Positions 28,826 to 33,306 of a stretch of 64,000 bases of DNA are shown here, in pieces; the stretch's first letter is position 1, and each line of letters starts with the position of its first letter. Made by a program: the position numbers and the translations under genes. The notes under the pieces were generated by a model. The model saw nothing but the letters and a program-made list of their open reading frames with translations. It did not search any database and had not been told where the DNA came from. Source of the DNA: Oligoflexales bacterium (GTDB lineage Bacteria > Bdellovibrionota_B > Oligoflexia > Oligoflexales > JAPPIL01); assembly GCA_965215515.1 (NCBI GenBank), contig OZ244057.1, positions 1,536,001 through 1,600,000 on the forward strand, given 5' to 3'.

Positions 28826-30463
28826 CTATTTCCGCAGCAGCATCTTGCGGGTGGTGGTGCTGTTGTCGGCGGACAGGGTGTAGAAGTAGACACCGCTGGC
28901 GACAGACTCGCCTTGGGTATTTCTGCCGTCCCAGTGGGCGGCACGGCTTTTGTCTCGGTACAGACCAGCGGGTTGGTCACCCAGGGCGAGGGTGCGCACT
29001 AGCTGTCCGTTCAGCGCGTGGATGCGGATCGTCACCTGTGCAGGTTCGGCCAGCTGGTAGGGTAGCCAGGTCTCGGTGTGGAAGGGGTTGGGGTAGTTGG
29101 CTAGCAGGGTGGTTGTTTGTGCGGGGGTAGTGCGGGCGAGCAGTTGTTGCAGGACATGTAGCCCGCGGCGATGGGCGGGGTGTGTCGCTGTCCGTTGCCG
29201 TGCCGTCTCGAGCCAGCGGCTCACTTGGCGGTTAGTTACCAGTCGTGTTGGGGTGGGGGGCTGAGGGGCATCGGCAGTCGTCTCGCCGAAGGCAGCAGCG
29301 ACGCGCACGAGATCCAAGATATCGACCGTGCCGTTACCGTCGATATCCGCGCTGTTTTTGCCTGTCTTGCCGAAGTTATCAGCCACAAGCACTAAATCTA
29401 AAATGTTGACCGTGCCGTCGCCATTGAGATCTTCGGCAACTGCTGGAGGTGTGACTGCGGCTAGCAGTTTAACCATGTCGGTAAGGTTTGCTTGCTGAGC
29501 GATGTCTAAGGCCCGCTGACCTTGCTTGTTACGAAGTGCAGGCTCGATGTCTCGGCGGGCGAGTAGGCGTTCTACGATTTCTGTTCTCTTATATATAACG
29601 GCGTAGTGCAGCGCCGTCATACCGCCGTTATCTTGGGCGTTGATGTCTATTTTGGGATCGTCCTTGAGTAGTTGCAGTGCATATCTAGGTGGGCTGTGCT
29701 TGACTTCAAAGATCAACGGATACTTGGGACGACAGCCCAGAGGGGCTTTTTCTAGCACATAGTCGGGGAAAAAACAGTCTTCGTGGTCAAGATCCTCATA
29801 TAAAAACTTGTAGAGCCAGATGATGCCGCGCTTATCGTCTTCTACAAGTCTGATCTTACCATCTCTGTATGAATGAGATAGATGAGAGGACATAATTGAA
29901 GGAGGTTGTTTGCCCACAGTGCTGCTCAATCCTCCCGTACTAGTCGGGGGTATATGTAAGCCAGTCAAGTAAGTATCATCCAAACCAAAGGCATGGCCGA
30001 TCTCATGGGTAAGGGATGATATAAGTCGGCTATTTACCGTTGTTCCCTCGCGTAAAAAAACCTCTGGTGGGTGCGTGTTGCTTAGCCGCGCATTTGATCT
30101 CCCGTCGATACAGTGAAACGTAACTCTTAAGTCTGAGGAGGATAGGTCAGCATTCTGCCTGTAGCGAAAATCATTGACCACAGGGTCGGTTGTGTTTAGC
30201 TCCCGCACGGGTTGTAGCCACAGTTGCAGGGCTGTGCCTATCGCCTGTTCCAGTGCTTTCGCATTACTGCGCTTCTCCGCGGAGCAATCGTCACCATACC
30301 TGTACGAGATGTCCCATCGCTCCTTATGCACTCTCCTCATCAGAATATGATAGCGGGTTAGATATTGGTCAAACGCGATAAATTTAGTGGCAGAGGGCTC
30401 GGGTATCTTGCAGGACACAGTACCTGACAACATAAAGCAGATGATCGCTAGTCTGTTATACAT
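28826..30463 (-). CDS. Zn-metalloprotease + ankyrin + dockerin-like + FlgD/T9SS-like C-terminal domain protein
   Basis: Lipoprotein-like signal, HEIGHAFGLDD..SIM (metzincin-like), ankyrin GMTALHYAV, two DxNGxGTVxILDLV repeats, LLANYPNPF...WDGRN...SGVYFYTL...RKMLLRK. Confidence 0.9.
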   Translation of the reverse strand: MYNRLAIICFMLSGTVSCKIPEPSATKFIAFDQYLTRYHILMRRVHKERWDISYRYGDDCSAEKRSNAKALEQAIGTALQLWLQPVRELNTTDPVVNDFRYRQNADLSSSDLRVTFHCIDGRSNARLSNTHPPEVFLREGTTVNSRLISSLTHEIGHAFGLDDTYLTGLHIPPTSTGGLSSTVGKQPPSIMSSHLSHSYRDGKIRLVEDDKRGIIWLYKFLYEDLDHEDCFFPDYVLEKAPLGCRPKYPLIFEVKHSPPRYALQLLKDDPKIDINAQDNGGMTALHYAVIYKRTEIVERLLARRDIEPALRNKQGQRALDIAQQANLTDMVKLLAAVTPPAVAEDLNGDGTVNILDLVLVADNFGKTGKNSADIDGNGTVDILDLVRVAAAFGETTADAPQPPTPTRLVTNRQVSRWLETARQRTATHPAHRRGLHVLQQLLARTTPAQTTTLLANYPNPFHTETWLPYQLAEPAQVTIRIHALNGQLVRTLALGDQPAGLYRDKSRAAHWDGRNTQGESVASGVYFYTLSADNSTTTRKMLLRK

Positions 30464-30470
30464 GCTACCT

Positions 30471-33306
30471 TCACGGACTGGGAGTTTGTGCCAAAATTGC
30501 TCGTGCTACTTCCATACATATATTTAAGAGAGAACTTCTTCTCGACAAAGTACCACTATCACTCTTTATGACATCAGGAAGCGGTGGCCAGTGTGTAGCA
30601 TCATGTCTGTCATCGTAATGAAGCCGTGTTATCCTGTAGGTATTGGCGTACCAATCGTACAGATCGGCATGCCACTTGTGCCCCGCTTTTGCCCCCCAAA
30701 CCGCGGGAGGTGGTGGAGGCGGGACATTGTCCCAATAACCAGGCATGCATGCGTATGTTCCTGTGGACGGACTCGTTGCGATGCTTGCTACCCTTTGATC
30801 GTACCAAGTTTTCAATTTATTATACCACGTTTCGAACTGCAAATTAGGCAAGTTTGCCGCGGGAACTGCCGCGATAAGATTTCTTTGTGCTGGGAAAGTG
30901 CAGACCGTATCGTCAGGAATGGGGCAGTGATTTACCACACTTAAGACATCAGGATCAGTCACCGTTTCGCATTCACACGAGGGCGCAGTTGGCGACCAAT
31001 CATGCCATATCTCATCCGTGTCTGTGCAGAGTGTTTTCTGTAGTTTTTGGAAAACGTTACATTGTTTGGGAGTGCACGTACAATCATCACCATCCCAGTC
31101 ATTTAGTGTTGTGTTACATGGTATGTCTGTGCGGCAATCTCCACACCTGCATTCAGGATACGGTAACCATTTTTTGTAGGGGTTATCCACACAGCTACTA
31201 ACTATTTCGCCAGTGTGGTGATCATAGCAATTATTTTGCGGTGTCGGTGGTTCGACTGGTGTGGAACAGTCACATTGCCCGCCGTCCCAGTGGGGTCGGC
31301 GATCACAGCTTGATTGAGGTTGCCCACTCACCTTGCTACCATGACAGCAGTAGTTACTGTTAGTATTCTCATCGCACACTTCGGGCTGCACTGGTGGTTC
31401 TGTAGTTGCGATACTACAACATCCATAAGTAACGGTATCATCAGGATCATACGTTCCCTTCCACTCGTCGCAGGTTAAATCAGTGGGTTGTATCACCTCG
31501 GTACTACCATCGCAACACTGCGTTGCTGGGTTGCATTCATCTGGTGGAGGTTCTTTGCAAGTGCAGTCTTCATATTTGTTTGGCTTTATACATTTGGGAG
31601 GAGTGAAGCTACTGCATTTTTCGTCTTCTGCTAAGTCCGCACAAGGACCAACGGGTGTATGATAACTGATAGTCTTGCGGCACTCAGAAGGATTATATGG
31701 ATTAGGAAGGCACTCAGTAGTTGTGCTCTGCCATGTGTAGTCTCCACAAGTCACTTGTTTTGCCCCGCAGACAGTTTTGGATTCAGTATTCACTGTGTCT
31801 TCACAACTGAAGCCCTCCTGACAAGTTGTTGGGTTATCTGTATGTGGCGTATAAGGAACAGTACAAGTCCTCGTCTGATCCACCTTCTGACAGGTGTAGG
31901 AATCAGCTGTGGCTGGTATCCAACTTCCACAATTTTCCCCACCTTTGACGCATGTGCACAGACACTTAGGGCATTTCTTTTTTCCATATATCTCTCGAGT
32001 CTCAGTGTCTTGGTAATCTTCGCACCTACCCCCTAGGGGGTTAATGCCTCTGCAAGTGTAAGGGATAGTTCTTGTCTGGATAAATTTATCGCAGTCACAC
32101 TCAGTGCTCGCTTTTGGCTTCCATGCGGTGGGAGTCCCCCTTGTGCAGGGGCACGAGTTGTGGCAACAGCCCTTGTTACGGGCACTAGCATTGAACGTCC
32201 CATACCACCCGTCATTGCAGATTAAGCCAAACGTATTGTGCACCTCGGTATTACCATCGCAACACTGCGTTGCTGTGTTGCATTCATCAGGTGGCGGCGG
32301 CAGCGGCGTTGGCGTTGGCGTTGGCGTTGGTGGCGTTGGCGTTGGTGGCGTTGGCGTTGGTGTTATGCAAACCTTCGTCCCTCTAACTGTCCGTTGCACA
32401 GTCCGTGTTGCTGCTGGACAGGGAGGCGGTCCACTACAGACTCTCGTCTGTGGTACATTTTCAATTCTCGATTCGCCCTCACAGGCGTTGGGATCTGTCC
32501 TACTATCACTCACCGCAGGCTGCCAAGGAGTACATCCGCATCTCCTACAGCAGCCCTTATTAGGGGCACTATCATTGAACGTCCCCCACCACCCGTTGCA
32601 GGTTAAGCTAAATGTATTAGCCACCACGGTATTACCATCACAGCACTGTGTTGTCGGATCACATGGTGGCGGAGGCGGTGGTGTTGGTGGCGGCGGCGGC
32701 GGCGGTGGTGCCCCTAAGCCTGCGGGGCAGTACTTGGTGATGTTGCGGCAGACCGTGGGTTTGGCATCGCGCAACGCCATCCTCACCGCATCACCCCGCG
32801 TATAGTCACACTCCTCTCTCCCCCCGCCATGACAATCGGGATAAATATACCTGCCCTCAGCATCGGCATAGGCAAAGGCAACCGCAACATTACCAGGACG
32901 CAACTGATAAAAATAACGTAACTGTCCACAGGCTTGCGGACGGAAACCCAGATGGTTATTCAACCCCAGATCGCGATCATCGGCGTAGTCCCCACAATCA
33001 CCCCTAGTACCGTCCTCATTCTTGTAGCCGATACCACCATCAGGAGCGAGCAACGCGGAGCCACTGTAGTACCTGAAGTGCTCGATCTTATACACCGCCT
33101 GCAGACTAGCCAGATGGGCGAGATTGCTCTTCGCCTCCCCCCGCCGTGCCTGCGCCAAGAAAGCATGATAACGCGGCAGCGCCAAGGCCACCAAAATGCC
33201 GATAACCGCCACCGCGACCATCAACTCCACCAAACTTAAACCCGCTCTCGTCCGCACCACTTCCCTTTTTTTGGCTAAAAACAAAACTTTCCCGCGCGAA
33301 CACCAT
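30471..33306 (-). CDS. Giant type IV pilin-like protein with Pro-rich linker and Cys-rich repeats
   Basis: G|LSLVELMVAVAVIGILVALALPRY..ARRGEAKSNL pilin N-terminus; about 700 aa of Cys-rich repeats; start is TTG 33284, or ATG 33306 if the A7 run is A6. Confidence 0.88.

Follow-up and report, generated by a model that had tools for sequence, protein, structure and literature searches.

In the Neisseria pilE/pilS system, silent cassettes feed one expression site, and Rhs polymorphic toxins are reportedly diversified by C-terminal displacement. Modular type IV pilins bearing adhesive modules are also established (PMC8179133). For instance, in PilB and PilC of Streptococcus sanguinis and in CofB of enterotoxigenic Escherichia coli, as in the pilins described below, a sizeable C-terminal part is grafted onto a pilin module that begins with a prepilin motif (PMC8179133). 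The unit considered here lies in the genome of an Oligoflexales bacterium, in a stretch of 64,000 nucleotides (contig OZ244057.1 of assembly GCA_965215515.1, positions 1,536,001 to 1,600,000) that is called the window and sits wholly in one 2.18-Mb contig; coordinates are those of the window unless marked "genome". It consists of a gene for a giant Cys-rich type IV pilin followed by a gene for a lipoprotein with a metzincin-type protease domain and ankyrin repeats. Full-text literature searches aimed at this layout turned up no such system (Dataset S1 of PMC8179133, like other supplements and the subscription journals, lay outside their reach), and within the literature searched the unit is undescribed; it behaves most like a repertoire of modular pilins diversified by C-terminal displacement, together with a surface metzincin. 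The features of the two copies in the window are as follows.

30471..33284 (-): giant modular type IV pilin, copy 1, open reading frame (ORF) of 937 aa with 76 Cys, Pfam N_methyl above cut-off
33285..33392 (-): upstream block shared with other copies, with 10 consecutive A in copy 1, likely the promoter region
32715..33284 (-): constant pilin head, aa 1-190, with the prepilin motif G|LSLVE at 33225-33242
30957..32714 (-): Cys-rich mosaic stalk of copy 1, blocks common to other copies, Pro/Thr linkers at 32685-32708 and 32343-32363
30474..30956 (-): C-terminal tip domain of copy 1, ~160 aa, from tip-class comparison
28826..30463 (-): lipoprotein with metzincin, ankyrin, dockerin and C-terminal domain (CTD), copy 1, 545 aa, from ORF and Pfam
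29708..30418 (-): part of the copy 1 protease with lipobox (Cys18), conserved Phe28 and the metzincin motifs listed next, from alignments
29969-30007 (-): zinc motif HExGHxFGLxDTY of the copy 1 protease
29888-29899 (-): Met-turn of the copy 1 protease
29831-29842 (-): Asp-Asp motif of the copy 1 protease
29459..29677 (-): ankyrin repeats of the copy 1 protease, from Pfam
28829..29434 (-): dockerin and C-terminal domain resembling FlgD and the type IX secretion system (T9SS), copy 1 protease, a type mass-expanded in Poribacteria-like proteins
62065..64000 (-): pilin tail of copy 2, Cys-rich ORF with its head beyond the window
60961..62055 (-): lipoprotein metzincin-ankyrin protein of copy 2, 364 aa, with a short TTWGxLK end at 60973-60993

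An earlier reading of the sequence (the original prediction) had claimed a 937-aa Cys-rich pilin in copy 1 and, after a 7-bp gap, a gene for a lipoprotein metalloprotease with ankyrin, and this is what was found, the second ORF having a lipobox, HExGHxFGLxDTY and ankyrin repeats; TIGR02532 is also above cut-off for the pilin, and in the protease Pfam places ankyrin, dockerin and FlgD-Ig above threshold and Peptidase_M10 below it. Two parts of that description needed amendment. The "disulfide-rich repeat extension" is Cys-rich but is not one repeat, being a mosaic of differing Cys modules with a separate tip domain, and the "protease-ankyrin" partner has both of these parts but also the dockerin and FlgD/T9SS-like domain, which had gone unmentioned. 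The pairing recurs, as predicted, at 60961-64000, where the protease stands 9 bp behind a Cys-rich ORF; the three motifs quoted in the prediction occur in both window proteases, the expected pilin head of copy 2 was found past the window edge (genome 1600949), and a third pilin-protease copy follows ~750 bp past copy 2.

Across the genome holding the window (G000), a search with the pilin head gave 13 full-length pilin loci, 12 at 91-99% identity including copy 1 and one at 62%. It also picked up two remnants of heads, and short pilins, five in number, at 38-44%. A protease lies directly behind the pilin in all 13 giant-pilin loci, with 42-88 nt from pilin stop to lipobox Cys codon in 12 units and 189 nt in one; conversely, close copies of the protease, taken at E below 1e-110, number 14, of which 13 follow a pilin; the fourteenth has altered zinc ligands and stands ahead of a head remnant that is fused to a HicA-like ORF (L048, genome 2171197-2172595). 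Six more distant protease paralogues of G000 stand alone, without a pilin. Close protease matches occur in 4 of the 131 genomes of a phylum sample, all of one family: G000, G001 and G002 of the same genus, and G003, a fragmented genome of the same family. In G001 all four giant pilins precede a protease and all four close proteases follow a giant pilin; in G002 both giant pilins of this head type precede a protease; and in G003 one close protease is preceded by a Cys-rich ORF that the contig end truncates, while another sits at the very edge of its contig (the survey of relatives took in only longer pilin frames). The original prediction had set a dedicated linkage against random adjacency of two abundant families; with 13/13 giant pilins paired and 13/14 close proteases behind a pilin, the adjacency is not random, and the counts in G000 and its relatives support a dedicated pairing well. 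A variable pilin is likewise well supported, by the stalk and tip comparisons given below. Copy 2 does have its pilin head, and neither of the two refuting conditions named in the prediction applies. The two-gene unit is thus confirmed as real and as restricted to one family. Among distant homologues, a 1,710-aa protease paralogue of G000 has an exceptionally long array of ankyrins but lacks a pilin (L050, G000 956700-961832), and there is, in another Oligoflexales family, a locus (L033, G017) with three catalytic-domain homologues without ankyrins, tails or pilins.

The pilin of copy 2 carries in this assembly an 18-bp deletion and homopolymers one base longer (G7, C11) than at the same sites of the paralogue at genome 1874368 (G6, C10), so that head and tail are out of frame; the other 12 of the 13 G000 pilins are intact. 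Public short-read contigs from three runs of one study cross the copy-2 gene junction without difference; the 18-bp deletion allele is absent from the public contigs examined, whose cover there is patchy, and length variants seen at the C run may stem from paralogues. An assembly artefact as the source of the pairing is ruled out by the short-read contigs and by recurrence in relatives.

N_methyl is above cut-off in all 13 heads, in which a class III signal peptide (Gly, hydrophobic tract, Glu5) is present, with Leu at residue +1 of the prepilin motif in the G000 copies; the head of copy 1 is 91-98% identical to those of 11 copies and 62% to that of one. Also encoded in the genome are type IVa pilus components, namely PilB- and PilT-like ATPases that score under the PilB cut-off, PilM, secretins and a prepilin peptidase, and, separately, a type II secretion cluster. 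By signal peptide, large C-terminal module and filament genes, the product is predicted to be a modular type IV pilin. Compared with the described modular pilins, however, there are here 13 dispersed copies of 590-1,205 aa, with 400-1,000 residues beyond the head, whereas the extreme multi-domain case in the paper has 860 aa; the stalks are disulfide mosaics, the tips are several and unrelated, and the partner protease is a separate gene, unlike the S74 or M26 fusions among the peptidase pilins surveyed there (PMC8179133). An upstream block of ~110 bp with a run of 8-11 A precedes 12 copies; no sigma-70 match was found in that of copy 1, and promoter and terminator scans stayed at chance level.

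Block comparison of the stalks reveals a mosaic. In 9 of the 12 intact copies, 25-99% of the tail lies in blocks at least 85% identical in DNA to another copy, while three copies share none, and 48 of 87 block ends fall at Pro/Thr linkers against 13.5% expected, the ends being tallied from both partners and hence non-independent. An even number of Cys is present in 11 of the 12 intact mature pilins. A simple tandem repeat as the stalk structure is ruled out by the same comparison. Similar variation of a pilin by recombination between near-identical arms is found in Neisseria pilE/pilS (PMC3899283), but here 12 of 13 copies are complete, 12 have the upstream block, remnants are few, and whole domains are exchanged, which does not resemble silent cassettes serving one site.

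Compared over their last 130-160 residues, 56 pilins sort into 8 classes and 7 singletons, and the classes cross species; the class of copy 1 is shared with the copy at genome 1491008 and with four proteins of other assemblies. Seven tip-class profiles lack mutual similarity, with an HHalign probability of at most 2% in 21 of 21 class pairs. The ratio of nonsynonymous to synonymous substitution rates (dN/dS), computed pairwise by a simple counting method on recombining genes, is 0.56-1.4 for tips (seven pairs; 0.82-1.4 in the four closest), 0.18-0.46 for protease domains (ten pairs) and 0.23-0.33 for heads (four pairs); close tip pairs, as far as such estimates go, evolve at dN/dS near 1. The tip of copy 1 has no Pfam or Atlas match, and its model is of low confidence (predicted local distance difference test, pLDDT, 58; four helices), with a best VIA Z of 6.2 (root-mean-square deviation 3.3, 96 aligned) that is uninformative and no Foldseek match at E 0.001 or better.

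A length-limited search returned 44 giant pilins, 8 of them from G000 and none on a contig above 3.3 Mb; a profile search, dominated by pilin-head matches since three full-length rows were in the query, added more that are rich in Cys and 490-1,390 aa long. Still others, also Cys-rich but with heads that diverge further, measure 1,120-1,540 aa (P0430, P0433, P0438, P0446, P0448, P0452, P0455, P0243 and P0244). A constant carrier with a swapped C-terminus, a downstream partner, headless remnants and a partner apparently gained alone by other bacteria are features shared with polymorphic toxin-immunity systems and rAID orphan-immunity arrays (PMC12247911), although the carrier here is a pilin. 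It could accordingly be proposed that the tip is a toxin exchanged by C-terminal displacement and the downstream lipoprotein its immunity factor, a reading that would cover the constant N-terminus, the repetitive stalk, the unrelated C-termini and the orphan partner copies in another lineage; it is nevertheless very improbable, because one active-looking protease family stands behind every tip class, the pairing is loose where strict cognate pairs would be expected, and a toxin family is recognised in 0 of 14 pilins. In addition, among 125 new proteins of the profile search, a limited test, the tips occur only on this pilin family or its fragments.

The partner enzyme can be placed by fold and motifs. 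The model of the copy-2 protease (pLDDT 88) matches catalytic domains of matrix metalloproteinases (MMPs; Foldseek E ~2e-5, TM by target ~0.55), namely MMP-1, -2, -3, -7, -8, -11 and -13, as well as ankyrin repeats. The metzincin signature HExxHxxGxx(H/D) and the Met-turn are present in 13 of 13 proteases, where zinc ligands, Met-turn and Asp-Asp are all intact and the intervening segments differ from copy to copy in both sequence and length; zinc motif and Met-turn are nearly invariant in 75 and 128 homologues. By analogy with the MMP structure, the variable segments presumably line the cleft. The predicted fold, HExxHxxGxx, Met-turn and Asp-Asp are shared with the matrix metalloproteinases (M10) and snapalysin (M7), but membership of M10A is not borne out, as Peptidase_M10 reaches 18.4 bits against a cut-off of 24 and the third zinc ligand is Asp rather than His, a snapalysin-like trait; a sequence search of the PDB gave weak snapalysin matches alone (E 0.2). 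Further differences from M10 and M7 are the missing pro-domain, the ankyrin fusion and the Poribacteria-type tails. On this model, and by the dN/dS values above, the enzyme is a metzincin of MMP fold whose zinc site is intact; it is kept under purifying selection and is predicted to be active. Ankyrin modules are likewise used with a hydrolase in the related predatory group, where the self-protection protein Bd3460 of Bdellovibrio is a separate inhibitor of peptidoglycan endopeptidases with no pilin, whereas here the repeats are fused to the enzyme (PMC4686830).

A Phe shortly past the lipobox is invariant in 75 aligned homologues. In homologues with a signal-peptidase-I (SPI) type signal it directly follows the Ala-x-Gly site and would therefore be the mature N-terminus, the same residue as in MMP-1, whose mature form begins at Phe81 (construct Phe81-Asp232; PMC1885970). 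In the lipoprotein forms the tether follows the pattern Cys-x7-10-Lys|Phe, and the Lys before Phe is a possible release site.

The units are dispersed in the genome. Two short motifs of repeat ends, searched with a tolerance of one mismatch, have 218 matches in G000, and one of the motifs flanks IS3-family transposase remnants. Such repeat ends lie within 250-300 bp of 11 of the 13 units, and downstream of 9 of 13 units against 104 of 1,204 genes in the background; copy 1 is without flanking repeat ends. Insertion sequences probably dispersed the unit, and homologous recombination probably shuffled it. Broken forms were seen as well: a stalk without its head that reads in frame into the beginning of a protease (L040, G000 1041556-1042449), a unit with its middle deleted (L055, G000 964616-965088) and an inverted partial copy (L056, G000 236166-237091). 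The repeat ends, and the existence of unpaired proteases, might suggest that two surface-protein genes were once neighbours and were multiplied jointly by insertion sequences without functional coupling. Such hitchhiking appears improbable, as the pairing is kept across three species despite proteases that are 38-73% identical in most pairs and tips that are unrelated, both genes are under selection by dN/dS, and the separated pieces in G000 are broken remnants.

The original prediction called the protease "cognate" and looked to co-phylogeny of the partners. Over the 13 G000 units, similarity of tips and proteases does correlate (Mantel rho 0.37, p 0.007), and mid-stalk similarity does not track that of the protease (rho 0.14, p 0.23); across genomes, tips of the same class go with more similar proteases (permutation p 2e-4, kinship ignored), and the nearest cross-genome protease shares the tip class in 11 of 23 cases, three pairs being inferred from equal-sized contigs. 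Part of the correlation is expected because the genes are adjacent and linkage contributes, and there are clear mismatches: the units at genome 1919415 and 1947545 have tips 72% similar and proteases of different clades, and the unit at genome 1343709 shares its tip class, but not its protease clade, with L025 of G002. Tip and protease therefore co-vary loosely, which fits a shared target better than lock-and-key pairing. The co-transcription layout and this partial co-variation, together with CofB-CofJ as described in PMC8179133, would also agree with a secretion adaptor whose tip binds the protease and carries it out on the pilus. This idea has little to recommend it, given that the protease comes with a lipoprotein signal and a sorting-type tail of its own, that the SPI forms appear to manage without pilins, and that unrelated tip classes would all need to bind one protease family.

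The SPI forms are numerous and appear to be clustered without pilins. Sorted by motif, the best 120 of 198 protease homologues comprise 86 SPI-type, 25 lipobox and 9 unclear sequences; the SPI forms occur on contigs of up to 5.1-6.3 Mb, the lipobox forms on contigs of 2.2-3.2 Mb. Cluster look-ups of 30 proteins gave one organism name, Ca. Poribacteria, for P0093, an SPI-type protease that is 80% identical over the catalytic domain to a pilin-linked enzyme of G002 and that falls by structure with matrixin-like clusters of the Atlas. Copy 1 points to the same group. Its tail scores 34.1 bits against a cut-off of 23 with TIGR04183 (T9SS-type CTD; Pfam Por_Secre_tail is below cut-off). At E 1e-20 or better, 3,670 homologues of the tail were found, most of them on WD40, leucine-rich-repeat and cohesin proteins, among the top 120 of which Poribacteria is the sole organism name; the Poribacteria label as a whole stands on two named records. 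WD40 proteins with this type of CTD have been described in Poribacteria, a dominant uncultured sponge symbiont (PMC3909097). Thus the copy 1 protease, by sequence comparison, ends in a Poribacteria-type dockerin and sorting tail. Within G000 such a tail is carried by two proteins only, both pilin partners (dN/dS 0.31 between them), and cohesin (PF00963) was not found in the four family genomes (86-94% complete). Most other protease copies of G000 end in a short TTWGxxK tail of Poribacteria type, which also occurs on the SPI homologues; three unrelated secreted-looking proteins of G000 (659691-660641, 986640-987557 and 987557-988561) end in it too, hinting that it may be a sorting signal used in the lineage. 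Scans of metagenomes and viruses gave no locus of the pilin-protease pair.

SPI and lipobox forms interleave on trees of 127 and of 58 chosen rows: monophyly of the SPI forms is rejected (approximately unbiased test, p-AU 6e-96), at least 10 label changes are forced by well-supported branches, with midpoint rooting every deeper branch is a lipoprotein form, and identity is 76-92% in cross-type pairs, compared with a median of 52% for the paralogues of G000. The catalytic domain thus appears to have been traded with Poribacteria-like neighbours. This nesting of the SPI forms within lipoprotein diversity also suits a different reading, in which the protease clips pilin tips, for self-release or to spare siblings, and Poribacteria-like cells, as likely prey or hosts, repeatedly took the gene, but not the pilin, to defend themselves against attachment. 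The contigs above 3.3 Mb on which SPI forms but none of the 44 giant pilins are found agree with it, as do the 21 groups of 2-4 SPI forms on equal-sized contigs, one of which leaves only 915 bp of a 3,084-bp contig; contig sharing here is inferred from equal sizes, and a few groups include fragments. These groups suggest clusters, as in orphan-immunity arrays (PMC12247911). The tip class of copy 1 also goes with dockerin-tailed proteases in two other assemblies, again from equal-sized contigs. The mismatches of tip and protease clade given above speak against tip-clipping, and pilin P0226 and SPI protease P0141, both on a contig of 21,909 bp, would if the shared size is real put an SPI form beside a pilin; the reading is on balance unlikely. 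Equally doubtful is a wider conflict between two phyla, in which an Oligoflexales epibiont or predator would grip Poribacteria through a recombining tip library, its protease clipping tips or docking on prey by borrowed sorting and dockerin tails, and Poribacteria would time and again capture the protease alone and array it as anti-pilus armour.

The reading preferred here, with a probability of about 45% and hence tentative, is that of a recombining repertoire of pilus adhesins and a partner protease that act jointly on a host or prey surface. At the sequence level its basis is a constant head, mosaic stalk, swappable tips, fixed gene order, an intact zinc site and purifying selection on the protease. 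The giant pilins would likely be built into type IV pili as interchangeable adhesins after PilD had processed the head; near-identical heads and protease ends would serve as recombination arms, and the disulfide stalk would hold the tip off the pilus, and the tip would grip a foreign surface, either animal host matrix or a prey cell coat. The MMP-like lipoprotein would likely cut proteins on the gripped surface, its lipid tether keeping it at the cell surface or being cut to free it with an MMP-like N-terminal Phe. Tip and protease would be matched to the same target and not to each other, and Poribacteria-like neighbours may take up the enzyme for its action on some substrate that the shared habitat offers.

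Several points weigh against this joint action. The pair is not obligate in relatives: one of three close proteases in G002 and at least one of three in G003 are without an upstream pilin, and G002 also has two Cys-rich pilins, with a different type of head, that no protease follows. Passage of a 600-1200-aa pilin through the secretin is presumed, the word adhesin is used by analogy because the tip is without a recognisable family and its model is weak, and the presumed habitat is deduced from the link to Poribacteria. Defence would account at least as well for the way in which many protease variants have repeatedly been exchanged with genomes that lack the pilin. If the joint action is true, an uncultured relative of predatory bacteria would use modular pilins on the scale of a repertoire, shuffle them at the level of domains and pair them with a dedicated enzyme. 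The traffic would be two-way, catalytic domains moving in one direction and sorting tails in the other, which speaks for close contact with Poribacteria and makes them a candidate partner or prey. Whether the protease cuts tips or host is the central question, and it is directly testable, the parts being small enough for expression.

The surroundings of the two copies are mixed. Convergent with the copy 1 protease, a predicted lipoprotein with Asp-rich, Pro/Thr/Arg-rich and Asn/Ser/Gly repeats is encoded at 27499-28740 (+), for which Pfam gave no match. On the other side, adjoining copy 1, 33701-55977 is a conjugative-element-like stretch with a replication-relaxation protein, a TIR/HEPN-like protein, an AlbA-RecG protein, a methyltransferase, TraK, TraE, a PilB-like ATPase, an S8 peptidase and a ParA-like fragment. 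Near copy 2, a 66-bp-type tandem repeat (unit ~22 aa) at 58860-59330 separates the two genes, for ATPase and permease, of an ABC transporter of glycine-betaine type and runs in frame with the permease ORF.

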